A program made the position numbers and the translations under genes. From Steroidobacteraceae bacterium (GTDB lineage: Bacteria; Pseudomonadota; Gammaproteobacteria; Steroidobacterales; Steroidobacteraceae): a stretch of DNA of 64,000 bases. The DNA is taken from assembly GCA_035524495.1 (NCBI GenBank), contig DATKOR010000045.1:2862-66861 (forward strand), in the 5' to 3' direction. The notes below the pieces were generated by a model. The model did no database searches. It was given only the letters and a program-made list of their open reading frames with translations, and was not told where the DNA came from. Positions 22-24,662 of this stretch are shown piece after piece (positions within the stretch are counted from its first letter, which is position 1; every line of letters begins with the position of its first letter).

Positions 22-996
22 ATGCGCACCGTCGTCGCCCTCGGAGCCCTGGCACTGTCGCTGATTGCAGTCAGTTCGGCGCGCGCCGACTGGATGCACC
101 GTGAAGAATCGATCATGGGCACGCGCATCTACGTCGAGCTGTGGCACGACGACCGCATCCAGGGCGACGCCGCCATCGATGCCGTCATGGACAACATGCG
201 GCGCATCGACGAGCTGATGAGCCACTACAAGCCCGAAAGTCAGTTGTCGCAGATCAACATGCACGCCGCGGTCGAGCCGGTTGCGGTGGATCCAGAGCTC
301 TTCGACCTCATCAAGACGTCGATTCACTACTCCGAGATCACCGAGGGCGCGTTTGATATCACGTACGCGAGCGTCGGCTACCTGTACGACTACCCGCGGC
401 ACGTGCACCCCACCGATGCCGAGATCAAGGCAGCGCTGCCCGGCATCAATTACCGCAACCTCATTCTCGACGCCGAGCACCATACGGTGCGCTTCGCCCG
501 CGAGGGCATGCGCATCGACCTCGGCGGCATCGCCAAAGGCTACGCGTGCGACCAGGCGATAGAGATCGTCAAGCGCTTCGGCGTCAAGAACGCGATGGTG
601 ATGGCGGGCGGCGATACCCGGCTGCTCGGCGACCGCCGCGGCCGGCCGTGGATGGTCGGCATCCGCAATCCCGACAACAAGAACAAGGTTGTGCTCAGCA
701 TGCCGCTGTCGGACGTCGGCATCTCAACATCGGGTGATTACGAGCGCTACTTTGACGAGGGCGGGGTCCGCTATCACCACATCATCGACCCGAAGACCGG
801 CAAGAGCCCGACGGGCGTGCGCAGCGTGACGATCATCGGGCCGACCGCGACCGACACCGAAGGCTGGTCGAAAGGCGTGTTCATCAAGGGTCCGGCGGAG
901 GGCATCCGCCTGATCGAGCAATACCCGCAGATGGATGCCGTCGTCGTCGACAAGGACGGCAAGGTCTGGTACTCGAAGGGCCTCGCGCCGCCGTAA
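22..996 (+). CDS. apbE: FAD:protein FMN transferase (ApbE family), periplasmic
   Basis: 324-aa ORF with N-terminal signal peptide (ALGALALSLIAVSSARA). ApbE-like blocks: MGT..., DLGGIAKGY, SGDYERYF, HHIIDPKTG. GGAGGA ribosome-binding site upstream of the ATG. Confidence 0.9.
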   Translation: MRTVVALGALALSLIAVSSARADWMHREESIMGTRIYVELWHDDRIQGDAAIDAVMDNMRRIDELMSHYKPESQLSQINMHAAVEPVAVDPELFDLIKTSIHYSEITEGAFDITYASVGYLYDYPRHVHPTDAEIKAALPGINYRNLILDAEHHTVRFAREGMRIDLGGIAKGYACDQAIEIVKRFGVKNAMVMAGGDTRLLGDRRGRPWMVGIRNPDNKNKVVLSMPLSDVGISTSGDYERYFDEGGVRYHHIIDPKTGKSPTGVRSVTIIGPTATDTEGWSKGVFIKGPAEGIRLIEQYPQMDAVVVDKDGKVWYSKGLAPP

Positions 997-1014
997 GTGG
1001 CGCAACCTGCGGGC

Positions 1015-2202
1015 CTAGAAGAAGATCGACAGGAAGGCCTGCACGACGTTCGCATTGTAGTGGTAGAGCGGCTCGGTTCCGGCCGGCAGTTGGCGCTGCG
1101 TCGCGTCCCGGAAGTCCTTGAACTTGTACATGATGTAGTCGTAATGCAGCGAGCCCGACGCCTTCTTCACGAGCCAGTGCTGTGACTTGAGGAAGTCGTA
1201 GGTCACCGCAGCGCCGACCGCGTTGTTGTCCTGCGCCGCCAGTTCCTTGTCGCGCGCCATGTAGTTCTGCTGGTTCGCGAACTGGAACAGATCGGAGTAG
1301 AACGACGCGGAGTTCTGCTTGTAGTACCGGTAGGTGAGGTCCGCGATCAGCCGATCGTTCAGGAAGGGCTCGGTGTAGTCGACCTCGACCGTGTGCGCGT
1401 GGATGTCCCAGGTGTCGAAGAAGTAGCGGTACTTGCCGGTCACCGAGGCGTGCCAGGGCAGGAAGTACTTCAGGCGGCCGGCGACCGCGTTGCTGGTGCG
1501 CGTGCCCGGATAGACCTCGGGACCGGTCAGGTAGATCGCCGACCCGGGCCCGGCGAGGTAGCGGATCGCGCGGTAAGGGTTCTGAAGGTAACCCTGCTCG
1601 GTGATTGCCTCGTAGTCGAAGCCCGAGATCAGGTTGCGCGTCAGGATCTGCGAGACGCCGAGCGACCAGGTCTTGCGGTCGACGCGCTTGCGGAAGTTGG
1701 GGTCCTTCTGGTGCGCGGCGTTGATGACCCGCGTCACGATGTCCCAGCCGCGGCTCGCGCCGATCGATATCGTCGTCAGGTCGCCGAACATGCTCTGCGA
1801 GATGCCGAAGCTCGCGGTGCTCGAATCGTAGTCGTTCTCGATGCTGCTCTGGACGCCGGCGCTATAGGTCGTCTTGCCGTACAGGTAGTCGACACCGAGC
1901 TGCTTTTGCTTGCGCACCTCGTGCAGCGGGCTCGCCCCGAGCACGATCATGTCGATCGACGCCCCGGTAACCTGGTCAACTTGGTAGCCGGCGGTGACCG
2001 AGATGTTGTCGGAGAAGTTCTTGCGCACGAGCACGGCTGGGCCCTGTGCCTTCAGGCCGCCGCCGTCGTACACCCGCCAGCTGGCGTCGGCGCGCTCCTC
2101 TGGCAGCACGTCGGCCACGGCGCTCGCGGCGACCAGGCACGCGAGCGCCGCCGCGCACAGCGGACGGCGCAGGGGACGCGGCTTGGACACGATCCGATCC
2201 AT
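1015..2202 (-). CDS. DUF3570-family outer-membrane beta-barrel protein, predicted ApbE flavinylation substrate
   Basis: 395 aa with signal peptide and alternating beta-strand pattern. C-terminal aromatic residue (…AFLSIFF). Contains D-Q-V-T-G-A-S (nt 1957-1977), matching the ApbE target motif. Sits beside apbE, DUF4266 and a thioredoxin, as is typical for DUF3570 loci. Confidence 0.8.
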   Translation of the reverse strand: MDRIVSKPRPLRRPLCAAALACLVAASAVADVLPEERADASWRVYDGGGLKAQGPAVLVRKNFSDNISVTAGYQVDQVTGASIDMIVLGASPLHEVRKQKQLGVDYLYGKTTYSAGVQSSIENDYDSSTASFGISQSMFGDLTTISIGASRGWDIVTRVINAAHQKDPNFRKRVDRKTWSLGVSQILTRNLISGFDYEAITEQGYLQNPYRAIRYLAGPGSAIYLTGPEVYPGTRTSNAVAGRLKYFLPWHASVTGKYRYFFDTWDIHAHTVEVDYTEPFLNDRLIADLTYRYYKQNSASFYSDLFQFANQQNYMARDKELAAQDNNAVGAAVTYDFLKSQHWLVKKASGSLHYDYIMYKFKDFRDATQRQLPAGTEPLYHYNANVVQAFLSIFF

Positions 2203-2210
2203 GCGCGTCT

Positions 2211-2438
2211 TCAGTTGCAGCCGCAGCCGCCGCCGGCCTCGCCGGTGCCGCCCCGCGCGCCTTCGCGGTTCTCGCGCACGTGCGTGATGTAGGAGGTCGC
2301 GATCGCATCGCGATCCCAGGCCATCACGCGATCCGCGAGCCGCTCGCGCTCATACGGCTTGACCCACGGCTGGATCTGGCCGCAGGCCGAGGTCAGCGCC
2401 ACGCATCCGAGCAGGACGAGCATGCCGAGCCTGTTCAT
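2211..2438 (-). CDS. DUF4266-like small lipoprotein
   Basis: Internal ATG of track ORF 2211..2762 gives 75 aa: MNRLGMLVLLGCVALTSAC (lipobox) … GGCGCN C-terminus. The longer N-terminal extension overlaps the upstream thioredoxin gene and is Arg/Gly-rich. Confidence 0.75.
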   Translation of the reverse strand: MNRLGMLVLLGCVALTSACGQIQPWVKPYERERLADRVMAWDRDAIATSYITHVRENREGARGGTGEAGGGCGCN

Positions 2439-2440
2439 GG

Positions 2441-2950
2441 CTACTTCTCCATCAGCATCGCGCGCACCTGGTTCAGGTACTCGTTCTCGTCGCCCGGCAC
2501 ATAGCTGCGGTGCACCCAGCGCAACGTGCCCTTGCGATCGATCAGCACGGTCGTCGGCATGCCGGAGACGTGGTACAGCTTGCTGACCGCGCTGTCCTTG
2601 TCGAACACGATCGGGAAGGTCACCGGCGTCTTGGCGATGAACCCTTCGGCGTCCTTGGCCTCCGGCTCGACGTTGACGCCGACCAGCGTGAAGCCGGCGC
2701 CCTTGTACTTCTTGTAGATCTGGTCGAGCAGCGGGAATTCCTTGCGGCACGGCTCGCACCACGAGGCCCAGAAGTTGACCATGACGACCTGGCCGCGCAG
2801 CTTCTCGAGGCCGAGCGGGGCGCTGCCGCCGCGCAACGGCAGCGAGAACGCGGGTGCCGGCTGCCCGATCGGGTCGGCGGCGGTTGCCGTCGAGGACACG
2901 CTCGCGGCGGCGGCGAGTGCAAGCGCGGGAAGAAGTGTCTTGATCCTCAT
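2441..2950 (-). CDS. TlpA/ResA-like periplasmic thiol:disulfide oxidoreductase
   Basis: 169 aa with signal peptide. Thioredoxin active site WASWCEPC. GMPTTVLIDRKG block typical of the TlpA/redoxin family. Confidence 0.9.
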   Translation of the reverse strand: MRIKTLLPALALAAAASVSSTATAADPIGQPAPAFSLPLRGGSAPLGLEKLRGQVVMVNFWASWCEPCRKEFPLLDQIYKKYKGAGFTLVGVNVEPEAKDAEGFIAKTPVTFPIVFDKDSAVSKLYHVSGMPTTVLIDRKGTLRWVHRSYVPGDENEYLNQVRAMLMEK

Positions 2951-2975
2951 GAATGGTCTCCGTGCTATTGCCTGT

Positions 2976-3665
2976 TCAGAAGAACACCGTTACGCCGAGG
3001 CCGGTCTCGAGGTTGTGGGTGGTCTTGGTCGAGCCGAGCAGGTCCATGTCGAAGATGCTGTCGCGTATATCGAAGTGCGCGGCCAGCCAGTCGTTGAGCA
3101 GCAGTCGGTAGCCGGCGCCGACGGCCACCGTGAAGCGGTTGTCGCCGGCGAAGTGGGTCGCGCCGACGCCGCCGACCACGTACAGCGCCGAGTTGAACGC
3201 GCGCCGGTTGCCGACGAAGACCTCGCCCGGGAACAGGTTGTACCCGAAGTCGAGGCTGTAATATGTGAGCCTGCGCTGACTATCGGTCAGCAGCTGTGCG
3301 CCGCCCGAGAGGCGCTCGTAGCTGGTGCGCCCCACGGTGGTGCGGCCGATCAGCGTCTGCGCGAAGAAGTCCTCGCTGATGTGATAGACGAGTCGCGCGC
3401 CCATCACCGGGTTGACCTCGAAATCCTCGGCGCTGTAGGTGCCGATGTAGGGCCCGATCTCGAAGTTCGAATTCTTGATCTTCGGGGTCTTGACCTTGCG
3501 GCGCACGACCTCCGGCTCGACGACCGCCGGAGCCGCGCCCTCGGCCGAGGTCGCCTCGACCGGCAGCTCCTCGGGGCGCTGCTTCTTGTGGAACGGCCAC
3601 ATCGAGCAGCCACCCAGCGCGAGCGCGCAGGCAATCAGAAAAAGAACGCGAAGCCTGCTTTCCAT
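2976..3665 (-). CDS. Small outer-membrane beta-barrel lipoprotein
   Basis: Trimmed to MESRLRVLFLIACALALGGC (lipobox). 229 aa with alternating hydrophobic strands and terminal …GLGVTVFF. The upstream 128 aa of the track ORF are Arg/Pro-rich shadow. Confidence 0.75.
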   Translation of the reverse strand: MESRLRVLFLIACALALGGCSMWPFHKKQRPEELPVEATSAEGAAPAVVEPEVVRRKVKTPKIKNSNFEIGPYIGTYSAEDFEVNPVMGARLVYHISEDFFAQTLIGRTTVGRTSYERLSGGAQLLTDSQRRLTYYSLDFGYNLFPGEVFVGNRRAFNSALYVVGGVGATHFAGDNRFTVAVGAGYRLLLNDWLAAHFDIRDSIFDMDLLGSTKTTHNLETGLGVTVFF

Positions 3666-4408
3666 TCGTTCCGATCCTCGTTTTGGTCGCGCTTCGTGAA
3701 CAGCACGTAGCTGCGGTAGTCGCCGCGCAGGATGAAGCGCCGGGACAGGTACCACTTGACGCCCAGGCCGTAGTAAGCGATCTGTTCGGTTCTCTCGGGC
3801 GGCGAGATGATCGTCGCCTTCGGCTGGATCCGGACGACGCCGGTGCCGAGGTCCAGGAACGGCGCGACGCGCCAGTCCGGCCGCGGCGAATGCGCAAGGC
3901 CGAGCAGCGCGATCAGGCCGTTCGAGGCGTGCCCGATCGTCTGCGCCACCTGCAGCTCGGTTGCGAGGTTCGCGTTCAGCGAATAGCCGACGTACAGGCT
4001 GTTGACGTTGCCGCCGCCGAAGTTTCCGGTCTGCGCGCCGGCCTCCCAAGGCCAGACGTCGAAGTCGCGGTGCGACAGGTCCTCGAGCGGCAGCTTCTCG
4101 CCGCTCGCGAGCAGCGTCTCGCGCATGTTGTCGCGGAACGCCCAGCCTTCGTGGTCGTACTCGTCGCGGACCTTGAACCAGTCGGTGCGACGGAACAGGA
4201 TCTCGACGCGCTCGCCGCGCGGAATCACTCTGAACACCGGGTAGCCGCCGCCGGGGCCCGTGTGCAGCTCGAGGTACGGATCCGCGACCGCGACTTCCGC
4301 GTAGCGGCCGGCATCGCGGTCGAATTGCCGCGCCGCGTCCCCCGAGTGTGCGAGTCCCGCTGCCGTGGCCAGAATAAGTAAGGTCGCGAGCTTCAGGACT
4401 TTACGCAT
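3635..4408 (-). CDS. Secreted SH3-like domain + outer-membrane beta-barrel protein
   Basis: 257 aa with signal peptide (ATLLILATAAGLAHS). N-terminal bacterial-SH3-like segment (YPVFRVIPRGERVEILFRRTDWFKVRD). C-terminal barrel ending …KAGFAFFF. Its 3' end overlaps the next gene start by 31 nt. Confidence 0.75.
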   Translation of the reverse strand: MRKVLKLATLLILATAAGLAHSGDAARQFDRDAGRYAEVAVADPYLELHTGPGGGYPVFRVIPRGERVEILFRRTDWFKVRDEYDHEGWAFRDNMRETLLASGEKLPLEDLSHRDFDVWPWEAGAQTGNFGGGNVNSLYVGYSLNANLATELQVAQTIGHASNGLIALLGLAHSPRPDWRVAPFLDLGTGVVRIQPKATIISPPERTEQIAYYGLGVKWYLSRRFILRGDYRSYVLFTKRDQNEDRNEWKAGFAFFF

Positions 4409-4412
4409 TCGC

Positions 4413-7235
4413 TCAGTTGGCCGGTGGTGGGATCGCGAACGGATCGTTGTAGTACTGACCGCCGATGTCGAGCCACTCGGAGATCAGCTTCAGCTCGGCC
4501 CCGGTCAGCCAGCCGGCGTGCGTACCGCCAGTGGCGAACTCATTGAAGAAGGCCGCCGAAGCATTCGCTCCCGCGCCGCTCATTGGCGGAGTGACCTGCA
4601 CGATGACCTGCGTGGGCAGGCCCGTCACCGGGTCCGGCGGTCCGGGCACGACGACGGGCTGCATAGTAACAGGGTCGAGCTCGGGGTGCGGGAACAGCAG
4701 CTGGCAGAACGAGGTGAACTCGTTCTGGTCGCAGGGGTTGGTCTGGGCCGGGCTGCTTGAGAGGTCGAGCTGACCCGCCGACACGCGCTTGACTCCGGCC
4801 GTGTCCAGCGGGCTGTGGCAGCCGGTGCAGGTCGTGTACGGCATCGTCGTGTTGGGATCGACGGCCGTGATCGTCGACCGCGGGCTGGTCCACAGCGGCG
4901 CGATGTGCAGCGGGTAGTGGATCGTGATGCGGCAGTTGTTCTGCCAGTTCGTCTCGCAGTCGGCCCGGACCGGTGCCGGCGTGCCGAGCTGCGCGTACGT
5001 CCAGGAGAACGAGGGGTCGGGCGTGCCGACACCGGTCGTCGTCCAGACGTCGGTGAACACGATGTCGACCGCCGGGTCGCTGGCGCAGGCCGCATCGACG
5101 CACGTCACCTGCATCGCGGCCCGGTAGTCGGCCATCGTCTCGCCGGCATTGGGCTGGCGCGGCGGGGGGACGATGTTGCCGGTGCGGTCGGTGACCTGCA
5201 GCGCCGTGTTCGGGAAGGCCTGGCCGGACACCGGGGCGCCGGTGTTCACGAGCGGGAACAGGCCGACCCGTCCGTGCGAGTTCGACGGCGGCATCTGCTG
5301 TTGCACGTGGCAGCCGTTGCAGACGACGGTCTCGCCGGTGCGGATCTGCATCCACGCGCGGTGGCGAGGGAACGTCCCGTCGAGCCGCCGGCCGTTGGCG
5401 TCGAGCAGGCTGATCTGGAAGGCGATGTTGGCCGGCACCTTGATGCGCACCGAGCCGTCCGGCTCGACCGGCGCGTAGCCGATGATCTCGCGCATGAAGC
5501 CGCCGGCTACGCCGAAGGCATAGTTCGGGAAGTTGTTGTTCGACAGCACTTCCTTGTCGGGCAGGCTGACCGCCTTCTCGACGCGCACGAAGCGCGGCCG
5601 GGTCGCGCTCGGCTGGCGCAGCGCCGGGTCGCGGACGGTCGCGATGCCCCCCGGAGCCGTATCGACGCCGTCGAAGTCGTAGACACTCTTTATATCCAGG
5701 ATGCCGACACCCTCGGCCGCCAGGGCGAAGGTGTAGGAGCCGGTGGTGCTCGGCTGGGCGTCCGGGATCACGGTCGGCGTCGGCAGCCGGGGCTGCAGCG
5801 CGACGACGTCGGTGAACATCATGCCCTCGACCGGCGTCACGATCGGCATCTGCGTGTTGTTGGCCGGATCGTAGATCCAGATGCTGTAGATCGTAGGTGC
5901 CGGCGTCACGCCGGTGATCGCGAGATTCTGCGAGGTGCACGGCACGACCAGCGTCTGGTTGAGCAGCCGGCACTGGCTCCAGCTGACGAGCAGCCGGTTG
6001 GTGCCGTCCCACAGCGGGAACACACTCGAGAAGCGGCCGCCGGGTGAGGGCGGCGCGACCGGCGGCGTCGCGTTGGGATCGGCGGCCGTGGTCACGACGT
6101 CGTTGACAACCATGCGCACCTGGCCGGTCGCGCCGGCCGCGACGGTCGCACCCAGGACCGTCTGCAGGTTCTCGACGAAGTTGGCCTGGTCAACGAGCGC
6201 GATGTCGCCGCCGAACTCGGTGCCCTGGAACGGCAGCAGGAGCGCAACGATCTTGCCGTCCGGACGGGAGCGCGCCTGGGTGAACTGCACCAGCGAGCCG
6301 CCCTGTGCGGTCGTCGGGTTGCCGGTGTCGTGGCTGTTGCGCCCGTACAGCAACTGCATGTCGCCGCCGTCCGGGTCGATCGCGTACAGGTGCATGCCGG
6401 CACCCGAGTTCTGGTCCCAGCGCGTGAACACGACGCGACCGTCGTTGAGCACCGACGGGTCGAGGTCGTGTCCGGTGTTGAACGAGACTTGGTGGATGCC
6501 GGTGCCGTCCGCGTTCATCACGTGGACGACGAACGCCGGCAGGTTGCGGTTGCCCTCGATGCCGGCCGCGAACTGCTGCTTGCCCTCGTCGATCAGCACC
6601 GCCTTGGCGTCGTGCTGGCGCGTCGAGGAGAACACGATGCGCCCGTCCGGCAGGTAGTGCGGACCGACGTCGTGACCGAGCGCCGCGGCGATCGGGTCGC
6701 TGATGACCTGGCGTACCGTGCCCTTGGTCGCGTCGTATTCGAAGATCGTCCAGCGCGGCTGCTGCGACTCCTTGGCGTTCTTAATCGTGTGGCAGCGGAA
6801 CGAGAAGATCAGCTTGGTGCCGTCGAAGGACGAGTCGAGATCGCGCACGTCGTGATCGGGGCCGGAGTTCCGGTTCGGATCCGAGGCCAGCGGGCAGGCA
6901 ATCGAGGAGGTGATGTTCTTCTCGTTCGCCGTCGGGCTCGCGCGCTCGCGCACCCACACGTCGGCCGGCCCGTTCCAGACGCGCTGCACGCGCAGGTCGT
7001 CCTCGAGCGTGATCGCGTTCGGGTCGGTGGGGTCGGGCAACGTCCGCTTGATGTAGGCGATCGCGAAGTCGGGCGATACCGGGTCGTTCGACGAGGTGCC
7101 GCTGCCCAGACCGATGCCGCTGTTGCTGCTGGCGGTGCCGTCGCTGCTCGAGCAGGCGGCGGCGAGCGCCGCGAGCAACGTCACAACGAGCAAGCGCTGT
7201 ACGCGGCTCAGCAGTGTTGCGTTCACAGTGTCCAT
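4413..7235 (-). CDS. Large lipoprotein: TolB/PD40-like beta-propeller with two c-type heme-binding (CxxCH) motifs
   Basis: Trimmed to MDTVNATLLSRVQRLLVVTLLAALAAAC (lipobox), 940 aa. PD40-like repeats: HYLPDGRIVFSSTR, LNDGRVVFTRWD, RPDGKIVALL. CNGCH at nt 5307-5321 and CTGCH at nt 4815-4829. The overall architecture is reminiscent of proteins carrying the hydrazine-synthase-alpha middle domain (inference). Confidence 0.8.
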   Translation of the reverse strand: MDTVNATLLSRVQRLLVVTLLAALAAACSSSDGTASSNSGIGLGSGTSSNDPVSPDFAIAYIKRTLPDPTDPNAITLEDDLRVQRVWNGPADVWVRERASPTANEKNITSSIACPLASDPNRNSGPDHDVRDLDSSFDGTKLIFSFRCHTIKNAKESQQPRWTIFEYDATKGTVRQVISDPIAAALGHDVGPHYLPDGRIVFSSTRQHDAKAVLIDEGKQQFAAGIEGNRNLPAFVVHVMNADGTGIHQVSFNTGHDLDPSVLNDGRVVFTRWDQNSGAGMHLYAIDPDGGDMQLLYGRNSHDTGNPTTAQGGSLVQFTQARSRPDGKIVALLLPFQGTEFGGDIALVDQANFVENLQTVLGATVAAGATGQVRMVVNDVVTTAADPNATPPVAPPSPGGRFSSVFPLWDGTNRLLVSWSQCRLLNQTLVVPCTSQNLAITGVTPAPTIYSIWIYDPANNTQMPIVTPVEGMMFTDVVALQPRLPTPTVIPDAQPSTTGSYTFALAAEGVGILDIKSVYDFDGVDTAPGGIATVRDPALRQPSATRPRFVRVEKAVSLPDKEVLSNNNFPNYAFGVAGGFMREIIGYAPVEPDGSVRIKVPANIAFQISLLDANGRRLDGTFPRHRAWMQIRTGETVVCNGCHVQQQMPPSNSHGRVGLFPLVNTGAPVSGQAFPNTALQVTDRTGNIVPPPRQPNAGETMADYRAAMQVTCVDAACASDPAVDIVFTDVWTTTGVGTPDPSFSWTYAQLGTPAPVRADCETNWQNNCRITIHYPLHIAPLWTSPRSTITAVDPNTTMPYTTCTGCHSPLDTAGVKRVSAGQLDLSSSPAQTNPCDQNEFTSFCQLLFPHPELDPVTMQPVVVPGPPDPVTGLPTQVIVQVTPPMSGAGANASAAFFNEFATGGTHAGWLTGAELKLISEWLDIGGQYYNDPFAIPPPAN

Positions 7236-8799: not shown

Positions 8800-8812
8800 G
8801 GGAGTATCGACC

Positions 8813-11341: not shown

Positions 11342-11363
11342 CGGAACCATCGAGGCAACTATC

Positions 11364-12977: not shown

Positions 12978-13051
12978 CCCCGCGCGGCCCGGGCCGGCAC
13001 CGGATGGCCGGCACGGCTGCGCGCTTTCGCCGCTTCCGGCATGCTGTGCCC

Positions 13052-14416: not shown

Positions 14417-14741
14417 CGCGCCTCACGCCGCAAGCCGCGCGGTGCGCCGCGGCCTGTCGCTATCCGGCGACTCGATTTGGGCCCAAACCGCGGTCCAGCG
14501 TTTTTGTGAAGCGTCCAACACTCTGCGTCGAAGCTGCGCGTTGACACTGTGGGGCCTGCGTGCGAGCTTTACAGAATCTGCCAAGGGCAAACTCGTCGCG
14601 AGGCGAGGACGCAAAGCTACCGGTCCGTGACAACGCGGATAGCGGGGTTGCCGCGGGTGGCCGTGTCCGTTTTGCGGCGGCCTGCGCGACGCTCGCCAAC
14701 GGTCGCTCGCGACGCGGGCGCGCTGCCCTCGGCTCGGTGAC

Positions 14742-16096: not shown

Positions 16097-18033
16097 GCCG
16101 AGGCGGCATCACGAGCGGCGCGCGCGCGTGTGCGTGCCTGCTGGCGCTGGCGTTCAGCGCCGGCGTGGCCGCGCCGAAGGCGACGCCGACACCGGGGGCG
16201 CTGCCTCCGGTCAAGGTCCGTGACCTCTATTACGGCGATGTGCTCTATTACTTCTACCAGGACGACTATTTCACGGCGCTGACCCACCTGACCGCCGCGC
16301 AGCAGCTCGGGCGCGTGTCGCACCACGAGGGTGATGCGCAGCTGCTTCTCGGGGGCCTGTACCTCTCGCTCGGGCAGCATCGCGAGGCCGGCCAGATCTT
16401 CGCCGAGGTGTTGGACCGCAAGAACGTGCCGCAGCCGGTGCGCGACCGCGCGCGGTTCTTCCTCGGCAAGGTGTGGTACCAGCGCGGCTACTTCGACAAG
16501 GCCGCCGACACGCTCGCGGCGGCGGGCAGGGCGGGCCTGTCGCCGGCGATGGAGGCCGAGCGCCGGATGCTGCTCGCCCAGGCGCTGCTGTACCAGGGCA
16601 AGTATCCCGAGGCGATTGCCGCGCTCGAGAACTGGAAGGGCCCGGTGATGTGGCAGGCCTACGCCAAGTTCAACCTGGGCGTCGCGTTCGTGCGCAACGG
16701 CCAGCTCGACCAGGGCGCGCACCTGCTCGACGAGATCGGCCGGCTCGAGCGCACCAACCGCGAGCTCGACGCGCTGCGTGACAAAGCGAACCTGGCGCTC
16801 GGCTACGCGCTGCTGCAGGCCAAGAAGCCCGTCGAGGCGCGCCCGGTGCTCGAGCGCGTGCGGCTGGACGGACCGCTGTCGACCAAGGCGCTGCTCGGCG
16901 TCGGCTGGGCCTCGAGCGATGCGCAGCAGTACCGCGACGCGCTGGTGCCGTGGCTCGAACTGCACGGGCGCGGCATGCTCGATTCGGCAGTCCAGGAGAG
17001 CTACCTCGCGGTCCCGTACGCCTACGGCAAGCTCAACGCCAACCGCCAGGCCGCCGAGTACTACGAGACGGCGATCCGCGAATTCGGAGCCGAGACCGGG
17101 CGCCTCGACGAATCGATCGCGGCGATCCGGCGCGGCGGCATGCTCGAGACGATCGTCAAGAACGAGTCGCGCAGCCAGCTTGGCTGGTTCTGGCAGCTCT
17201 CGACGCTGCCGGATGCGCCCGAGTCACGCTACCTCTATCACCTGCTCGCCCAGAACGACTTCCAGGAAGGCCTGAAGAACTTCCGAATGCTGCGCTACAT
17301 GGAGCGCAACCTCGATGGCTGGTCGACCAGCGTGGAAGCCTTCGACGACATGCTCGCCACACGCCGCGAGCGCTACGATACGCGCCTGCCGGCGGTCCTC
17401 GCCAAGCTCAACGGCGTCGACCTCGAGGAGCTGCAGCGCCGGCGCACGGAGATCGAGTCGCAGGTCGTCAGCGCCGAGAACACCGGAGACGTTGCGGCGC
17501 TCGGCACGCCGCACGAGCGCGAGCTGTGGGCGCAGGTCGAGCAGATGGAGTCGGTGCTCGCGAACGCCGGCAATGACCCCGACCTCGACGATGCCCGCGA
17601 CAAGCTGCGGCTGGCGCGCGGCGTCCTCTACTGGGAGATGAACGACGGCTTCAAGGCCCGCGCCTGGGCCGTGAGGAAGGGCGTGCGCGAGGTCTCGCAG
17701 GCGCTGCGCGAGACCGAGAAGCGCTGGTCGCTGGTTCAGGAGGCGAAGCAGGCCGTTCCGGACCGCAACGGCGAGTTCGGCGCGCGGATCGCCTCGCTGC
17801 GCCCGCGCATCGAAGGGGCGCGCGACCGGCTCGCGGCGCTTGAGCGCGCGCAGGCCGACTACCTGGCCGACATCGCGGTGCGCGAGCTCGAGTCGCAGAA
17901 GGAGCGCATCGCGACCTACATGCTGCAGGCGCGTTACTCGCTCGCGACGATCTATGACCGCGCGACGCAGGACCTCGATGCCAAGCGCGGCCCGGCGCCG
18001 CAAGCGCCGACGCCGCCCCAGGGCACGCAATGA
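16093..18033 (+). CDS. Tetratricopeptide-repeat (TPR) protein with coiled-coil C-terminal half
   Basis: GTG start in a GTGA overlap with the upstream stop, about 646 aa. Signal-like N-terminus (ACACLLALAFSAGVAAP). Repeated TPR-like A/Y/L patterns, then long charged helices. The upstream part of track ORF 15394.. is out of frame with the real upstream gene and Arg-rich. Confidence 0.75.
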   Translation: MSRGGITSGARACACLLALAFSAGVAAPKATPTPGALPPVKVRDLYYGDVLYYFYQDDYFTALTHLTAAQQLGRVSHHEGDAQLLLGGLYLSLGQHREAGQIFAEVLDRKNVPQPVRDRARFFLGKVWYQRGYFDKAADTLAAAGRAGLSPAMEAERRMLLAQALLYQGKYPEAIAALENWKGPVMWQAYAKFNLGVAFVRNGQLDQGAHLLDEIGRLERTNRELDALRDKANLALGYALLQAKKPVEARPVLERVRLDGPLSTKALLGVGWASSDAQQYRDALVPWLELHGRGMLDSAVQESYLAVPYAYGKLNANRQAAEYYETAIREFGAETGRLDESIAAIRRGGMLETIVKNESRSQLGWFWQLSTLPDAPESRYLYHLLAQNDFQEGLKNFRMLRYMERNLDGWSTSVEAFDDMLATRRERYDTRLPAVLAKLNGVDLEELQRRRTEIESQVVSAENTGDVAALGTPHERELWAQVEQMESVLANAGNDPDLDDARDKLRLARGVLYWEMNDGFKARAWAVRKGVREVSQALRETEKRWSLVQEAKQAVPDRNGEFGARIASLRPRIEGARDRLAALERAQADYLADIAVRELESQKERIATYMLQARYSLATIYDRATQDLDAKRGPAPQAPTPPQGTQ

Positions 18034-21000
18034 GACGCGCGGCCCCCGCAATCATCCTGTGGCTCTGCACCGGCCTGCTGGCCGCGGGCGTCGCCGTGGC
18101 TGCGGCGCCGAAGAAACAGCCGACGATTGCCGACCTCAAGGGCAAGACGGTCGACGTCACGCCCGACGAGCCGACCGACGCCAACTCCGACAAGGCGCGG
18201 CAGAACTACCAGGAATTCCTCAACCTCGAGCGCGGCGACGCGGCGCTGCGCGCCGAGGCGATGCGCCGGCTCGGCGACCTCAAGCTCGAGGCCGGCGAGC
18301 TGAACCGCATCGAGAAGGAGCTGGTGTCGGGCTCGCCGCTCGACACGTCGGACGCGATCGTCCTGTACACGAAGCTGCTCGCCGCGTACCCGAACTACGA
18401 GCGCAACGACGCGGTGCTCTACCAGCTGGCGCGCGCCTACGAGGCCGACCAGCAGAGCGACAAGGCGCTCGGCACGCTCGATCAGCTGGTGCGCCGCTAC
18501 CCCTCGAGTCGCTACATCGACGAGGCGCAGTTCCGCCGCGGCGAGATCATGTTCGTCGACAAGCGCTGGGCGGACGCCGAGGCGGCCTATGCGCACGTGA
18601 TGAAGTTCGGTTCCAAGTCCGAGTTCTACGAGCAAAGCCTGTACAAGCATGGCTGGTCGCTGTTCAAGCGCGGCGAGTCCGAGGGGGCGCTCGACTCGTT
18701 CGCGAAGCTGCTCGACATCAAGCTCATCGACCCGCAGGGCAAGGAGCGCGACCTCGAGGGCTTCACGCGGCCGCAGCGCGAGCTCGTCGAGGACACGCTG
18801 CGGGTGTGCGCGATCACCTTCTCCTTCGACGAGGACGCGAAGGGCGTCGATGCTTTCCTGAAGCGCCACGGGTCCAAGCCCTACGCCTATTTGCTGTACG
18901 GGACGCTCGGCGACCTGTACGTCAGCAAGGAGCGCTGGACCGACGCGGCGGACGCCTACCGCGCGTTCGCCAAGCGCGAGCCGGATCACGAGCACGCGCC
19001 GCTCCTGCAGATGCAGGCGATCGACGCCTACAAGCGCGGAGGATTTGCGAGCCTGGTGCTCGACGGCAAGCGCGAGTACGTCGAGCGCTACCAGCTCGGC
19101 TCCCCGTTCTGGGCGCATCGCCAGCCGGCCGATGCGCCGCTGGTCGTGCGCGAGCTCAAGACCAACGTCAAGGACCTCGCCGCCTACTATCACTCGCAGG
19201 CCCAGACCTCGAAGCAGACGGCGGACTACCAGGAGGCGGCGCACTGGTACCGCGTGTACCTGCAGTCGTTCCCGGACGACAAGGACGCCGCGAACACCAA
19301 CTACCTGCTGGCCGACACGCTGTTCGAGAGCCACCAGTTCCACGACGCCGCGCTCGAGTACGAGCACAGCGCCTACGGCTACCCGCCGAACGACAAGTCG
19401 GCGACCGCCGGCTACGCGGCGCTCGTGTCCTACGAGAAGCACGAGCCGACGCTGCAGGGCGAGGCGCGCAGCGCCTGGCACCGCCAGGGCCTCGAGAGCG
19501 GGCTGCGGTTCGCGACGACGTTCCAGAGCCATCCGGAGAGCGCGCCGGTGCTGGTGCGCACCGCGCGCGAGTACTACGACCTCAAGGAATACGCGAAGGC
19601 GATCGATGTCGCCGACATCGCGCTCGCACGCCAGCCGCCGATCGACGTCGAGAAGCAGCGCACCGTGTGGACCGTCATTGCCAACGGCCAGTTCGAGCTC
19701 GGTCAATTCGACAAGGCCGAGGGCGCCTACCTGCAGGTGCAGTCTCTGCTCGCGGCCAACGATCCGCAGCGGCCGGTGATCGACGAGCGCATCGCGGCCT
19801 CCGTGTACAAGCAGGGCGAGGCGCGCAAGGCGGCCGGCGACGAGGCCGGCGCGGTCGGCGATTTCCTACGGATTGCGCAGCTTGCGCCGCACTCGAAGAT
19901 CCGCGCCAGCGCCGACTACGACGCCGCGGCGCTGCTGATCGGGCTCAAGGACTGGCCGAAGGCGATCGAGGTGCTGGAGGGCTACCGGCGGAACTTCCCG
20001 ACGAGCGAGCTGCAGCCCGAAGTGACGCGCAAGCTCGCCGTCGCCTACGTCGAGGCCGGCCGGCCGGGACCGGCTGCGGTCGAGTTCGAGCGCATCGCAT
20101 CGGCGCCCGGCGGCAGCGTCGACGTGCAGCGCGAGGCGCTCGTCCAGGCGGCGACGCTTTACGAGAAGTCCGGCGACACCGCGAAGACCGTCGCGTCCTG
20201 GGAAAGCTACGTCAAGCGCTTCCCGCAACCCTTCGAGCCGGCGATGGAGGCCCGCCAAAAGCTCGCCGACCTGGCGCAGCAGCGCGGCGATGCAGCGCGC
20301 CGCGCGGCGCTGCTCGACGAGATCATCCGCGCCGACCAAGGCGCGGGCGCAGCGCGCACTGACCGCAGCCGCTACCTCGCCGCCAAGGCCTCGCTCGAGC
20401 TTGCGATGCCGACGCGCGAGGCGTTCAATGCGGTGCGACTGGTGCTGCCGCTCAAGAAGTCCCTTGAGGCCAAGCGCGCTGCGCTGCAGCGTGCGCTGAA
20501 GTCCTTCGAGGCGGCGGACGCCTACGCGATCGCCGAGGTCTCTACCGCCGCGACCTTCGAGATGGCCGAGCTCTACCGTCAGCTCAGCGTCGACCTCCTG
20601 AAGTCGGAGCGCCCGAAGAGCCTGACCGACGAGGCGCTCGAGCAGTACAACCTGCTGCTCGAGGAGCAGGCCTACCCGTTCGAAGAGAAGGCCATCGAGA
20701 TCCACCTCGTGAACACCGCGCGCGCAGCGCAGGGCCTGTACAACGAGCCGGTGCGCGCGAGCTTCGCGGCGCTCGCCAAGCTCAAGCCCGCGCGCTTCGC
20801 CAAGACCGAACAGAACGAGGATCTCGTGATCGACGCCGCGGCGGGTGCCCCGCCGCCCGAGCCGCCGGCGCCCGCCGTGCCGGCCAAGGCGCCGGCCAGC
20901 AATGCGAAGAGTGCGCCGCCGCCGGCCAACGCGGTGCCGCTGCAGCTCGCGGTTCGCTTCCAGGAGGCGGTCGCCGCAGCCGATCGCGGCGGCGAGGCGC

Positions 21001-21440
21001 AGGCGGATGCCGAGTTCGTCGCGTTGACGAGCGGCGCCCCGACGCTCGCCGGGCCGCCGCTCAACCACGGCATCCTGCTGAGCCGCGCCCAGCACTGGCC
21101 CGAGGCGGCGGACGCGCTCGGCGAGGCGCTCAGGCGCCATCCGGGCTGCGCGACCGCGGCGGCGCAGCTCGGCGTCGTCTACCGCCAGCTCGGCAAGTTC
21201 AGCGACGCCGAGCAGTCGTACCGCAAGGCCCTCGAGTCCGACGCGAACGACGCGCGCACACACCGCAATTTCGGCGTGCTGCTCGACCTGTACGTGCAGA
21301 AGCCTGCCGAAGCGCTTGCCGAGTACGAGCGCTCGCTGGCGCTGGCCGGCGGCGAGGACAAGCAGATGTCGGCCTGGATCGCCGAGCTGCGCCAGCGGCT
21401 CGGGGCGGGCCAGAAGAGCGCCCGCGCGGAGGCCCAATGA
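18030..21440 (+). CDS. Giant TPR-repeat protein (1136 aa), exported
   Basis: ATGA overlap with the upstream gene. Signal peptide (IILWLCTGLLAAGVAVAAAP). Many TPR/BamD/CpoB-like repeats along the entire length. Confidence 0.85.
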   Translation: MRRAAPAIILWLCTGLLAAGVAVAAAPKKQPTIADLKGKTVDVTPDEPTDANSDKARQNYQEFLNLERGDAALRAEAMRRLGDLKLEAGELNRIEKELVSGSPLDTSDAIVLYTKLLAAYPNYERNDAVLYQLARAYEADQQSDKALGTLDQLVRRYPSSRYIDEAQFRRGEIMFVDKRWADAEAAYAHVMKFGSKSEFYEQSLYKHGWSLFKRGESEGALDSFAKLLDIKLIDPQGKERDLEGFTRPQRELVEDTLRVCAITFSFDEDAKGVDAFLKRHGSKPYAYLLYGTLGDLYVSKERWTDAADAYRAFAKREPDHEHAPLLQMQAIDAYKRGGFASLVLDGKREYVERYQLGSPFWAHRQPADAPLVVRELKTNVKDLAAYYHSQAQTSKQTADYQEAAHWYRVYLQSFPDDKDAANTNYLLADTLFESHQFHDAALEYEHSAYGYPPNDKSATAGYAALVSYEKHEPTLQGEARSAWHRQGLESGLRFATTFQSHPESAPVLVRTAREYYDLKEYAKAIDVADIALARQPPIDVEKQRTVWTVIANGQFELGQFDKAEGAYLQVQSLLAANDPQRPVIDERIAASVYKQGEARKAAGDEAGAVGDFLRIAQLAPHSKIRASADYDAAALLIGLKDWPKAIEVLEGYRRNFPTSELQPEVTRKLAVAYVEAGRPGPAAVEFERIASAPGGSVDVQREALVQAATLYEKSGDTAKTVASWESYVKRFPQPFEPAMEARQKLADLAQQRGDAARRAALLDEIIRADQGAGAARTDRSRYLAAKASLELAMPTREAFNAVRLVLPLKKSLEAKRAALQRALKSFEAADAYAIAEVSTAATFEMAELYRQLSVDLLKSERPKSLTDEALEQYNLLLEEQAYPFEEKAIEIHLVNTARAAQGLYNEPVRASFAALAKLKPARFAKTEQNEDLVIDAAAGAPPPEPPAPAVPAKAPASNAKSAPPPANAVPLQLAVRFQEAVAAADRGGEAQADAEFVALTSGAPTLAGPPLNHGILLSRAQHWPEAADALGEALRRHPGCATAAAQLGVVYRQLGKFSDAEQSYRKALESDANDARTHRNFGVLLDLYVQKPAEALAEYERSLALAGGEDKQMSAWIAELRQRLGAGQKSARAEAQ

Positions 21441-21922
21441 GCAAGAGATGGCTGACGATGTTCGCCGCGCTCGGCACCACCGCCGTATTGGGGGTCGCCT
21501 CGGCCGAGGATCCGCCGAGCGCCGGGCGCGCCGCCCGCGCGGCCTCGCCCGAGGTCCAGCAGGCTGAGCCGGCGGTCAAGGCGCCGCCCGCCACCCCGAA
21601 GCCGCGCAAGGCGTCCGCGAAGGCCGATGCCGCGCCCGGCGAAAAGACCGCGAAGGCCATCGACCGCCTCGAGCTCGAGACGACCCAGATCACCGGCAAC
21701 CGCGAGCTGCCGAAGGTCATGGTGATCGTTCCCTGGAAGCGCTCGGATATCGGCGACCTCGTCGGCCGCCCGGTGAACAGCCTGGTCGACGAGGCGCTGC
21801 AGCCGGTCGACCGGGAGGTGTTCCGGCGCGAGATCGACTACTTCGACGCGCTGGCCCCGGACCGGGCCCGAAGCGAGACGCGCGTCACAGGCGGGACTCC
21901 GGGATCCCGGCCTGAGAAGTGA
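21437..21922 (+). CDS. Small secreted protein of unknown function
   Basis: 161 aa with ATGA overlap with the upstream TPR gene. Signal peptide (MFAALGTTAVLGVASA), Ala/Pro/Lys-rich linker, and a conserved-looking C-terminal half (LPKVMVIVPWKR…). Confidence 0.65.
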   Translation: MSKRWLTMFAALGTTAVLGVASAEDPPSAGRAARAASPEVQQAEPAVKAPPATPKPRKASAKADAAPGEKTAKAIDRLELETTQITGNRELPKVMVIVPWKRSDIGDLVGRPVNSLVDEALQPVDREVFRREIDYFDALAPDRARSETRVTGGTPGSRPEK

Positions 21923-22003
21923 ACCACGGTATTCGTAACATAAGTTGAGTGAAATGGACCGGCCAAGCCGGCAAACCTCGTCGAATCGAACGGAGCAGCG
22001 GAG

Positions 22004-22708
22004 ATGCATGCCTACGACGTGATCGTGAACTTCTTCAAGCAGGGAGGCTTCTTCCTGTACCCGATCGCCCTGATCTGGGCGATCGGCCTGGTGATCGCCA
22101 TCGAGCGGTTCGCCTACCTCATGAAGGTCGGGACCGGCAACAAGCGCCTGTGGGACCAGCTGCAGCCGCTGTTCGAGGCCGGCAACTTCAAGCAGGCGAC
22201 CAACGCCGTCTCCGACTCGGACACCGCGCTCGCACAGGTCATGCGCTACGGCATGAGCCGCATCACGACCGCGCGGCGCCGCGAGGACATCGAGAAGGCA
22301 ATGGAGGAGAGCCTGGTCGAGGTGATCCCGCACCTCGAGCGGCGCACCCACTACCTCGCCGCGCTCGCCAACATCGGCATGCTGATGGGCCTGTTCGGTA
22401 CCGTGCTCGGCCTGATCAACGCCTTCGCCGCGGTCGCCCAGGCGAACCCGGCCGAGAAGGCGAGCCTGCTGTCGGCGAGCATCTCGGTGGCGATGAACAA
22501 CACGGCACTCGGCCTGCTGGTCGCGATCACGCTGCTGCTGTCGCACCTGTATCTCGAGACCAAGACGACCAACATCGTCGACAGCCTCGAGGTCGCGAGC
22601 GTGAAGTTCTTGAACGCCCTGTCCGAGCGCCAGCAGCGCGCCGAGGCGCCCGCGACTGCCGCGAGCGCGGCACCGCGCGGCGGTGAGGTGCGCGGGGCGA
22701 GGGCATGA
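22004..22708 (+). CDS. exbB: MotA/TolQ/ExbB-family proton channel
   Basis: 234 aa with three TM segments and the signature LANIGMLMGLFGTVLGLINAF … MNNTALGLLVAI. Confidence 0.9.
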   Translation: MHAYDVIVNFFKQGGFFLYPIALIWAIGLVIAIERFAYLMKVGTGNKRLWDQLQPLFEAGNFKQATNAVSDSDTALAQVMRYGMSRITTARRREDIEKAMEESLVEVIPHLERRTHYLAALANIGMLMGLFGTVLGLINAFAAVAQANPAEKASLLSASISVAMNNTALGLLVAITLLLSHLYLETKTTNIVDSLEVASVKFLNALSERQQRAEAPATAASAAPRGGEVRGARA

Positions 22709-23214
22709 GCGGATCCTCGATAGCCCGCCGCCAGGCGCGCAACCATGCGCGCTACAAGGGTCGGAACGATATCAACATCGTTCCGATGCTCGACATTTTC
22801 ACGATCCTCGTGTTCTTCCTGATCTTCACGGCCGTGTTCTCGAAGACCCACATCGTCGAGATGAATCTGCCGGCCCAGAGTTCCGAGCCCCTGTCGCTGC
22901 CCGAGGGGCTCGTGCTCGAGATCGTGGTGCGCAAGGACGGTCTGGTGGTGCAGGACAAGAACTCGGGGCCCCTGCAGCCGTTCCCGAACAACGAGCAGGG
23001 CTACGACTTCGACGGCCTCAACTCGTACCTGACCCGCGTCAAGGCCCGCTTCCCGGAGCTCAAGTCCGCGACGGTGCTGCTCGAGCAGAACATCCCGTAT
23101 GACACGATCATCGCGACGATGGACGCGGTGAAGTCCTACGAGGGCACGCTCGACGGCCAGCCGGCGCGCGGCGAACTGTTCCCGCAGATCTCGCTCGGAG
23201 ATGCGCCGACATGA
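22705..23214 (+). CDS. exbD: ExbD/TolR-family protein (copy 1)
   Basis: 169 aa with ATGA overlap with exbB. INIVPMLDIFTILVFFLI contains the conserved TM Asp. Confidence 0.9.
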   Translation: MSGSSIARRQARNHARYKGRNDINIVPMLDIFTILVFFLIFTAVFSKTHIVEMNLPAQSSEPLSLPEGLVLEIVVRKDGLVVQDKNSGPLQPFPNNEQGYDFDGLNSYLTRVKARFPELKSATVLLEQNIPYDTIIATMDAVKSYEGTLDGQPARGELFPQISLGDAPT

Positions 23215-23726
23215 TTGCCTCGCGCCTGAAGCGCTACCGCAAGTCCGGCGGCCACCACAGTGGTCACGGCATGCCGGCGCTCATCCCGATGATCGACATG
23301 CTCGTGATCCTGGTCGTGTACATGCTGATTCACACGGCCGACTACGAGATCCTGCCGAACACCAAGAACATCTCGATCCCGCAGTCGATCTCCGAGTCGC
23401 GCCCGCGGGAGTCGACGGTGCTGATGGTCACGCGCGACATGATCTTCGTAAACGGCAACGCGACCGCCTCGGTCGCGGACATCGACGCCGACGTGCCGGC
23501 GGCGCGCGATTCACTGCAGGCGAGCCTGAAGGCGGAGACGCAGAAGCGCACGCAGTTGCGGCCCGACGACCCGACCGCCCGTGAGGTCACGGTGATGGCC
23601 GACAAGGGCCTGCCGTACAGCCTGCTGAAGAAGATCATGTTGGCGGCGACCGCGGCGGACATCGGCAAGATGTCGCTGGCGGTCATCGAGAAAGAGCGGG
23701 CCTACCACGGCCCGAACCCTGGCTGA
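23211..23726 (+). CDS. exbD: ExbD/TolR-family protein (copy 2)
   Basis: 171 aa with ATGA overlap with copy 1. ALIPMIDMLVILVVYML contains the conserved TM Asp. Confidence 0.9.
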   Translation: MIASRLKRYRKSGGHHSGHGMPALIPMIDMLVILVVYMLIHTADYEILPNTKNISIPQSISESRPRESTVLMVTRDMIFVNGNATASVADIDADVPAARDSLQASLKAETQKRTQLRPDDPTAREVTVMADKGLPYSLLKKIMLAATAADIGKMSLAVIEKERAYHGPNPG

Positions 23727-23747
23727 GTTTCGCCGAGCGAGCCCACG

Positions 23748-24662
23748 ATGACCGCGCTTTCGACCAATTATCGGATCTTCGAGCTTCCCTGGACGCCGAA
23801 CGACGACGAGGAGCGGCATTTTAAACGGCTGCTCACGATCGGCATCGTCATCTGGCTGATCATCGTCTTCGGCACGCAGCTGCTGCCGACGCCGGAGCGT
23901 CCGGCCGCACAGCCGCTGCCCGAGGAGGTCGTCAAGCTCGTGCTGCAGCCGCCGTTGCCGAAGCCGAAGCCCGTCGAGGAGAAGAAGCCGGAGCCCAAGC
24001 CGATCCCGAAGACGGTCGTGCCGCCTCCGCAGGTCGACAAGACCGAGCAGGCGCGCAAGAAGGCGCAGAAGGCGATGAACGCCGTCAAAGACGAGCTCGC
24101 CGACCTGCGCGCGGCGCTCAACACCGAGCAGCTCGCGAGCGCCAAGCCGCTCAAGGACAAGGTCGACGGCCCGGCGCGCGCCGAGCGCTCGCTGATCACG
24201 TCGAACCTGACGGGCGGCAGCGGCGGCATCAACACCGCGGCGCTCAGTTCCGGCTTCGGTGGCGGACCGGGCTCGCTGCACGGCCACTCGACGATGCAGG
24301 GCGTCCAGTCCTTCGCCGACGGCATCCGCAAGGACCACGCCGAGGCCAAGCGCACCGGCTCGAGCGGCAAGGCCTCGCGCAGCCGCGAAGAGATCGAAAT
24401 GGTGTTCGACCGCAACAAGGCGGCGATCTACGCGCTCTACAATCGCGCGCTGCGCGACAATCCGCAGCTGCAGGGCAAGGTCGTCGTGCAGCTGACGATC
24501 GCCCCGACCGGCGAGGTCACCGACTGCAAAGTGCTGTCGTCGGAGCTCAAGGACGAAGAGCTCGAGCGCAAGCTCGTGGCGCGGATCAAGATGTTCAAGT
24601 TCGACGACAAGGACGTCGAGCTGATCACGACGACGAAGCCGATCGACTTCTTCCCGGCCTGA
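23748..24662 (+). CDS. TonB-like energy transducer
   Basis: 304 aa with N-terminal TM anchor (LLTIGIVIWLIIVFG). Pro/Lys/Glu-rich spacer (PPLPKPKPVEEKKPEPKPIPK). C-terminal TonB/AgmX-type domain (GKVVVQLTIAPTGEVTDCKVLSS…). Confidence 0.85.
   Translation: MTALSTNYRIFELPWTPNDDEERHFKRLLTIGIVIWLIIVFGTQLLPTPERPAAQPLPEEVVKLVLQPPLPKPKPVEEKKPEPKPIPKTVVPPPQVDKTEQARKKAQKAMNAVKDELADLRAALNTEQLASAKPLKDKVDGPARAERSLITSNLTGGSGGINTAALSSGFGGGPGSLHGHSTMQGVQSFADGIRKDHAEAKRTGSSGKASRSREEIEMVFDRNKAAIYALYNRALRDNPQLQGKVVVQLTIAPTGEVTDCKVLSSELKDEELERKLVARIKMFKFDDKDVELITTTKPIDFFPA

Follow-up and report, generated by a model that had tools for sequence, protein, structure and literature searches.

A candidate envelope-spanning system joining a DUF3570 redox module to an Agl/Glt-type motor cluster in Gammaproteobacteria

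We analyzed a 64,000-nucleotide stretch of contig DATKOR010000045.1 (hereafter the window; G+C ~69%) from a Steroidobacteraceae metagenome-assembled genome (MAG) of ~82% completeness, in which 20 consecutive genes at positions 22–24662 probably encode one functional, envelope-spanning system composed of two known halves plus accessories. One half is a redox module around ApbE, an exported FAD:protein FMN transferase, and a divergent outer-membrane barrel of the DUF3570 family; the other is a predicted proton-driven motor resembling the Agl/Glt core complex. The cofactor motifs of the block are conserved in orthologues, its halves co-occur and are repeatedly linked across gammaproteobacterial families, and they share a riboswitch class. 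A more specific reading, possible though doubtful, is that an Agl/Glt core outside the gliding bacteria powers or gates a flavin–haem–thiol redox machine at the outer membrane, under the control of cyclic di-GMP (c-di-GMP) or a related dinucleotide.

Gene content of the block

Open reading frame (ORF) calls and G+C at third codon positions (GC3), together with Pfam and NCBIfam scans, confirmed the predicted run of 20 genes, which leaves few gaps. On inspection of the N-termini, 19 of the 20 proteins carry a signal peptide, lipobox, twin-arginine translocation (Tat) motif or transmembrane helix, leaving a methyltransferase as the sole protein without an export signal, just as the original prediction had described. 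The redox half consists of apbE and a minus-strand operon (aa, amino acids; HZS, hydrazine synthase):

22..996, plus strand: ApbE, exported FAD:protein FMN transferase with a signal peptide (PF02424, 279.5 bits)
1015..2202, minus strand: outer-membrane beta-barrel of a divergent DUF3570 subfamily (PF12094, 143 bits against a cut-off of 25, model positions 108–388 only)
2211..2438, minus strand: DUF4266 lipoprotein with the C-terminal sequence GGGCGCN, a CXC motif (PF14086, 76.4 bits)
2441..2950, minus strand: first TlpA/ResA-like periplasmic thioredoxin, WCEPC (AhpC-TSA and Redoxin matches; NCBIfam ResA and TlpA models below cut-offs)
2976..3665, minus strand: OMP_myx_plus small outer-membrane barrel lipoprotein with a lipobox (TIGR04565, 159.4 bits against a cut-off of 60)
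3635..4408, minus strand: exported protein with an SH3_3 domain and a small outer-membrane barrel (PF08239, 39.1 bits; weak OMP_b-brl and TIGR04565 matches)
4413..7235, minus strand: 940-aa HZS-like lipoprotein with a PD40-type propeller, an HZS_alpha middle domain and two CxxCH motifs (PF18582, 52.9 bits)

The apbE and DUF3570 genes are convergent and 18 nucleotides (nt) apart, and apbE adjoins the redox array in other families too, in variable positions. Genes on the minus strand are tightly packed or overlapping, the first of them encoding the HZS-like protein, whose CxxCH motifs at residues 639 and 803 are conserved in orthologues. Orthologues likewise keep the CGC tail of the DUF4266 lipoprotein, the WCxPC of the first thioredoxin and, more broadly, the CxxC motifs of this thioredoxin and of a second one in the motor operon; a DsbD able to feed both is encoded outside the block, on contig C97. 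A literature search returned no paper mentioning TIGR04565. In two compact arrays (L003, 5674–6177, plus strand; L020, 5262–5771, plus strand), a Cys-rich lipoprotein of 167–169 aa, with a C-x4-CH-like motif and the ending CG-x-C...CG[FY], lies between the HZS-like and SH3-barrel genes and is not present in the window; the HZS-like protein of these arrays is also longer than that of the window and has a third CxxCH.

The DUF3570 barrel is a likely substrate of ApbE. Its AlphaFold2 (AF2) model (predicted local distance difference test (pLDDT) 88, predicted template-modelling score (pTM) 0.82) has ~16–18 strands, and a fold search with it returned generic outer-membrane barrels only, at TM-scores of ≤0.5 and with no specific structural relative; MtrB was only one among many such matches. 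The protein has one T-G-A-S motif (residues 79–82), which falls where strand 3 ends, in a loop of low confidence, and no second flavinylation motif was found in it. Orthologues mostly read [ST]-S-A-S, compared with the published [S/T]GA[S/T]. A DUF3570-like gene of one genome (G005) is without any S-[GS]-A-S motif, and the 30 kb fetched around it held no ApbE match, a combined loss that fits ApbE acting at that site.

The motor half is a plus-strand operon, in which genes overlap by 4–10 nt:

14742..15317, plus strand: second TlpA-like thioredoxin, WCGSC (Redoxin/AhpC-TSA matches)
15485..16096 (alternative start 15464), plus strand: p210, a 203-aa exported protein with a signal peptide, an Ala/Pro linker, a long helix and a beta-sandwich
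16087..18033, plus strand: 648-aa exported tetratricopeptide repeat (TPR) protein, GltC-like by size and position (TPR matches)
18030..21440, plus strand: 1136-aa exported TPR protein (YbgF-type repeats, 110 bits; GltE model NF033758, 29.8 bits against 225)
21437..21922, plus strand: p161, a 161-aa exported protein of no family, whose orthologues keep its position between the TPR and ExbB genes
22004..22708, plus strand: MotA/TolQ/ExbB-type proton channel, AglR-like (PF01618, 91.9 bits; Tol/Exb equivalogs below cut-offs)
22705..23214, plus strand: ExbD/TolR-type protein, AglQ-like (PF02472, 56.6 bits; 4-nt overlap with both neighbouring genes)
23211..23726, plus strand: second ExbD/TolR-type protein, AglS-like (PF02472, 51.5 bits)
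23748..24662, plus strand: bitopic TonB-like protein with a transmembrane helix, a Pro/Lys-rich linker and an AgmX/PglI C-terminal domain (NF033768, 69.4 bits against a cut-off of 40)

Residues 1 to ~940 of the 1136-aa protein are GltD-like and the last ~200 GltE-like, the latter being a separate ORF in most other families. The TonB-like protein resembles GltG without its FHA domain, matching the GltG model NF033760 at 46.7 bits against 650 and in the tail only. The GltC and GltD models gave no match, and p161 and p210 belong to no family; sizes, signal peptides and gene order fit the core complex. Taken on sequence, the channel, its two ExbD/TolR-type partners and the TonB-like protein appear to qualify as core-complex members, and for the TPR proteins the likeness seems to be architectural only.

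Within the motor unit p210 is the best-conserved gene (57–74% identity across families), always lying just upstream of the 648-aa TPR gene, and has at least 8,000 homologues, with no Pfam domain among the matches listed. Its AF2 model (pLDDT 75) consists of a helix and a generic beta-sandwich, and a PDB fold search with the model was uninformative. One database record labels a p210 homologue as an AraC regulator, which looks wrong. The TlpA-like gene precedes the TPR genes in G005, L066 and L068; being found in only some lineages, it is facultative.

Between the two halves lies a third operon (7579–14416), divergent from the HZS-like gene:

7579..8799, plus strand: p406, a 406-aa exported protein of no family with one conserved CxxCH (only PSCyt3 at E 0.17 in Pfam and NCBIfam)
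8813..11341, plus strand: LamG842, an 842-aa lipoprotein with two CxxCH motifs, both conserved, and a LamG domain (PF13385, 92.3 bits)
11364..12977, plus strand: Tat-signal exported protein of ~537 aa with the twin-arginine motif RRDFIAQG (no family match)
13052..14416, plus strand: Zn-ribbon and class I S-adenosylmethionine (SAM) methyltransferase (Methyltransf_11/25 matches)

The p406 gene heads this operon, and orthologues of the Tat protein always follow the LamG gene directly. A Pfam and NCBIfam search at loose thresholds found nothing for p406, the Tat protein, p161 or p210 beyond the PSCyt3 match. The methyltransferase gene is a facultative fourth member of the operon: of 23 same-genus genomes, 11 have it after the Tat gene, as do several other families, and many loci are without it. 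That a cytoplasmic methyltransferase recurs as the last gene behind exported haem, LamG and Tat proteins makes it odd company for them.

These assignments largely bear out the three themes of the original prediction. Its outer-membrane barrels correspond to the DUF3570, OMP_myx_plus and SH3_3-plus-barrel genes, and its proton-motive-force transducer with huge TPR scaffolds to the ExbB, ExbD, ExbD and TonB-like genes with the 648-aa and 1136-aa TPR proteins. The third theme needed amendment: the five predicted CxxCH motifs are present and all conserved in orthologues, but are spread over three proteins (HZS-like, two; p406, one; LamG842, two) rather than four, and the two TlpA-like thioredoxins are real, but the cytochrome- or copper-maturation role given to them is unsupported, the first being the thioredoxin member of a published DUF3570 cluster.

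To the right of position 24662 lie SirB2, an EamA transporter, a nitroreductase and an RpiR regulator, in agreement with the expectation that ordinary content would begin at ~24.7 kb, and they make this a fair right border for the block. On the left, the contig extends 2.9 kb beyond the window and encodes, ahead of apbE, an exported SYLF/YSC84-like protein (contig C45, 1918–2763, minus strand) and a winged helix-turn-helix (wHTH)/ATPase-type regulator.

Co-occurrence and linkage of the two halves

Association between the halves was measured in 300 evenly drawn Gammaproteobacteria genomes that were at least 90% complete, a sample of this class only, with an orthologue of the giant TPR protein scoring motor presence. 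Matches to PF12094 were of two kinds, canonical full-length (45) and the divergent subfamily found here (46 genomes). The original prediction was to fall if its sub-clusters proved unlinked in most relatives, and the outcome was the opposite: the motor cluster (giant TPR, ExbB-ExbD-ExbD and TonB-like genes) was present in 43 of the 46 genomes with divergent DUF3570 versus 20 of the 254 others, and in 31 of the 46 the DUF3570 and giant TPR genes lay 2–25 kb apart, against a chance expectation of a few per cent. Canonical DUF3570 was never linked to the motor (0/45).

Linked loci showed at least four arrangements across many gammaproteobacterial families, with distances between DUF3570 and the motor peaking near 3 kb and 14 kb. 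The 3-kb class is a single-strand array (G198, G184, G052 and G055) in the order ApbE, HZS-like, SH3-barrel, OMP_myx barrel, TlpA, DUF4266, DUF3570, p210, TPR, TPR, p161, ExbB, ExbD, ExbD and TonB-like. In the 14-kb class the haem/LamG/Tat triad is interposed, as in the window, and other gene orders occur in G195, G043, G202 and G349.

We also built a tree of 76 GltD-like copies, all gammaproteobacterial and taken from the class sample. Linkage to DUF3570 was clustered on this tree, requiring 12 changes compared with 23 in shuffles, none of which (0/500) was as low. Two stand-alone motor clades, of 19 and 7 rows, contained no linked copy, and genomes with two copies carried one motor paralogue of each kind.

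Closer to the source genome, we followed three markers (DUF3570, the 842-aa LamG protein and the 1136-aa TPR protein) through 60 relatives. All three shared a contig, in an unchanged order, in nine genomes of the genus and in five other genera of the family, and within genus and family the units that they mark lay together as far as the assemblies permitted. DUF3570 adjoined the TPR and motor genes without the LamG unit in four genomes of the genus (G005, G014, G017 and G023) and four of other families (G052, G053, G055 and G040), a third order (motor, DUF3570, LamG) was found in G043, G048 and G051, and the motor was located elsewhere in G037, G060, G044, G046 and G050. Among 41 named loci with full flanks, the array from HZS-like to DUF3570 was present in every one (41/41) and the haem triad, with p406 divergent from the HZS-like gene, in 39. 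Ten named records were checked for the motor, which lay just beyond the triad in four, probably so in Dasania and elsewhere in five, including Povalibacter and Lentisalinibacter.

One same-genus locus is reduced (L015, G005:C16 8195–21849). Beside the motor it has TlpA, two small barrels and a DUF3570-like gene of 31% identity that has lost the motif; the 30 kb fetched gave no match for the HZS-like protein, ApbE or the haem triad. As in the window, SirB2 comes after the TonB-like gene.

Transcription units and the riboswitch

The envelope super-locus proposed by the original prediction stands as regards linkage and co-occurrence, but its genes form four transcription units: apbE, the minus-strand redox operon, the haem/LamG/Tat/methyltransferase operon and a riboswitch-led motor operon. 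The block is not a single operon; a terminator-like hairpin and a riboswitch lie between the last two units, in 14417–14741:

14477–14498, plus strand: terminator-like hairpin with a T run after the methyltransferase gene (consensus scan)
14577–14656, plus strand: c-di-GMP-I-GGC riboswitch aptamer (RF03167, 67.1 bits against a gathering threshold of 59, E 4.5e-14, model positions 1–80 of 80)

Hairpins in the region were no more numerous than expected by chance, and only the position of this one is therefore suggestive. The riboswitch occupies the 325-nt gap directly before the second TlpA gene and so heads the motor operon; a further hairpin and T run at 14652–14665 overlaps the 3′ end of the aptamer and may be its expression platform. 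The search of the window gave no further riboswitch ahead of the haem triad or the HZS-like operon, and a promoter consensus scan gave no sigma-70-like site.

Searching 61 relatives for RF03167 returned 2–16 copies per genome, which suggests that this element governs a large regulon in the clade. In 15 relatives a copy immediately precedes the motor operon, redox-linked or not; the element also heads the entire compact array in G052, G053 and G055, and precedes the haem triad in G045. This shared class is cis-regulatory evidence that the units may form one regulon, though weak evidence when taken by itself, given how common the element is in these genomes. Our literature search yielded no settled ligand for the GGC variant. 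The source genome has two further copies (C63:2828–2910 and C89:3793–3896, both minus strand). In three relatives, a copy lies ~4.5 kb downstream of the giant TPR gene of a stand-alone motor (G038:C270:10811–10898, G039:C72:10762–10849 and G059:C16:91984–92073), positions that would fall after the motor genes.

Interpretation and comparison with known systems

In the system that we propose, ApbE would attach FMN to the divergent DUF3570 barrel, whose partners would be the DUF4266 CXC lipoprotein, the TlpA-type thioredoxin, the two small barrels and the di-haem propeller lipoprotein. The divergent operon usually lies alongside; its products are the mono-haem p406, the LamG lipoprotein with two haems and the Tat-exported protein, with the methyltransferase added here. 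Electrons could pass from DsbD, encoded elsewhere, to TlpA, the CXC motif of DUF4266, the FMN on DUF3570 and finally the outer-membrane haem lipoproteins. The TolQR-like stator would drive the TonB-like arm, which, with the TPR scaffolds, p210 and p161, may reach the barrels; the motor might then gate, position or expose the redox complex, or move its substrate. Expression would follow c-di-GMP or a related dinucleotide, and with it a surface-attached lifestyle.

Several points weigh against this proposal. In the window the redox and motor halves are transcribed separately, with the terminator-like hairpin between them. Among the 63 motor-bearing genomes, 20 have the motor without the redox module, and the two are unlinked in Povalibacter, Lentisalinibacter, several Pseudomonadales MAGs and G044. 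The DUF3570 motif, mostly [ST]-S-A-S, is single rather than double, and orthology of the TPR proteins to Myxococcus GltC, GltD and GltE would depend on size, order and sub-threshold model matches. Since related genomes are not independent, a Fisher P value for the co-occurrence overstates the case and is only indicative.

The halves could be merely juxtaposed, as independent envelope systems brought together by the clustering of envelope genes or by a neighborhood inherited in part of the Gammaproteobacteria. Separate transcription units, the motors found alone, the five of ten named records in which the motor is unlinked, and a riboswitch class so numerous that its sharing is weak evidence all favor this explanation, which we nevertheless consider quite unlikely: it has to contend with co-occurrence in 43 of 46 genomes, with linkage in at least four gene orders and many families (single-strand fused arrays included), with the complete lack of linkage for canonical DUF3570 and with the fact that two-motor genomes link one particular paralogue. 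By analogy, the motor might instead be a biogenesis or export machine for the haem propeller and LamG di-haem lipoproteins or for a polymer, with the flavin and thiol chemistry acting separately on this cargo. Agl-Glt exposing an adhesin and Agl-Nfs moving a spore-coat polymer are parallels, and Wartel 2013 (PMC3858216) proposed that the core is a basal transport machinery. Three proteins have lipoboxes, and the two small barrels of the module resemble GltA/GltB in size, although no secretion or sorting component is recognizable. Loci of the G005 type keep the barrels, TlpA and a DUF3570-like gene by the motor, with no HZS-like or ApbE match in the 30 kb fetched. We regard an export machine as unlikely, and it overlaps with the proposed redox system to an extent that makes the two hard to tell apart by sequence.

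A second Tol-Pal system, or a TonB uptake system for a metal or cofactor transporter, is highly improbable. The best NCBIfam matches are indeed TolQ, TolR and YbgF/CpoB repeats, and the haem lipoprotein has a weak match to a TolB propeller, but Tol/Exb equivalog scores fall far below cut-offs, a true TolB is encoded elsewhere beside a TolQ-like gene, no protein of the block has a receptor or plug domain and the score of the TonB-like tail exceeds the cut-off of the AgmX/PglI model.

Both halves have been known separately yet unexplained, DUF3570 as a proven ApbE substrate and the core complex, since 2011, as a functional complex with no role assigned to it. Repeated linkage, co-occurrence and a shared riboswitch class turn these two open questions into one, namely what the motor does to the redox barrels, and the tie of only one DUF3570 subfamily to the motor refines the published picture. 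If the proposed coupling is true, this would be the first Tol/TonB-class proton motor coupled to cell-surface electron transfer, and it would identify the cargo from which the machines for gliding and for the spore coat evolved later. Cultivable carriers exist, for example Povalibacter, Dasania and Lentisalinibacter. Our literature search found no paper that brings DUF3570 and Glt genes together, nor one that links Agl-Glt to a c-di-GMP riboswitch.

Several known systems share parts of the block. The 940-aa lipoprotein is a domain relative of the hydrazine synthase alpha subunit; both are exported proteins that unite a propeller and c-type haem motifs with the HZS_alpha middle domain. Hydrazine synthase itself was rejected: NF052339 scored 34.1 bits against 800, only the middle domain matched, the beta and gamma subunits are missing and the context is not that of anammox. 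MtrCAB-type outer-membrane conduits combine a barrel with haem lipoproteins and have decahaem chains. The barrel and haem lipoproteins of the block could likewise carry electrons across the outer membrane, but here there are one to two haems per protein, a predicted covalent flavin on the barrel, a thiol relay and a proton-driven motor. With Tol-Pal the block shares a TolQ/TolR-like stator, a TolA/TonB-like arm, YbgF-type TPR repeats and a PD40 propeller nearby, but it has no Pal/OmpA-like peptidoglycan-binding protein. Tol-Pal identity was rejected on scores of 60.9 bits against 221 for TolQ, 41 against 127 for TolR and 27 against 343 for TolB, the true TolB and a TolQ-like gene being on contig C80; TonB-dependent uptake was rejected because the 20 proteins include no receptor or plug family.

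The redox half is closest to the flavinylation cluster of ApbE, DUF3570, DUF4266 and a thioredoxin, with or without DsbD, whose function was left open by Meheust 2021 (eLife, PMC8238504) and whose DUF3570 from Chlorobium (C. luteolum) was experimentally flavinylated (PMC8238504). ExbB and ExbD are absent from the main text of that paper, where TonB comes up in connection with PepSY-like clusters alone and not with DUF3570 clusters (PMC8238504). In both cases ApbE, DUF3570, a DUF4266 protein with a C-terminal CXC and a periplasmic thioredoxin-fold protein are encoded side by side, and an ApbE-type motif is present. Here, however, DUF3570 is divergent, with one motif rather than two and mostly Ser for Gly in orthologues; the thioredoxin is of the Redoxin/AhpC-TSA type and not PF13899; DsbD is on another contig; and the cluster has extra barrels, a di-haem propeller lipoprotein and a linked Glt-type motor.

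For the motor half, the counterpart is the Group B Agl/Glt core complex (gltC, gltD, gltE, gltG, aglR, aglQ, aglS and one extra gene), which is clustered in Gammaproteobacteria without an assigned function (Luciano 2011, PMC3169522; PMC3858216). The two share, in one region, one TolQ-like and two TolR-like genes (22004–23726) and a bitopic TonB-like protein, together with three TPR modules of matching size: 648 aa against the 673 aa of GltC, itself a TPR protein with a signal peptide (PMC3169522), ~940 against 1191 aa, and a short GltE-like part. Both also have extra small genes without Myxococcus homologues, and no gliding genes. In the window, by contrast, the GltE-like part is fused to the GltD-like part, the GltG-like protein has no FHA domain, and the extra conserved genes number two (p210 and p161) instead of one. 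Finally, the motor genes are preceded by a c-di-GMP-I-GGC riboswitch and a TlpA gene, and the core, which Wartel 2013 (PMC3858216) proposed to be standalone, is here joined to a redox module.

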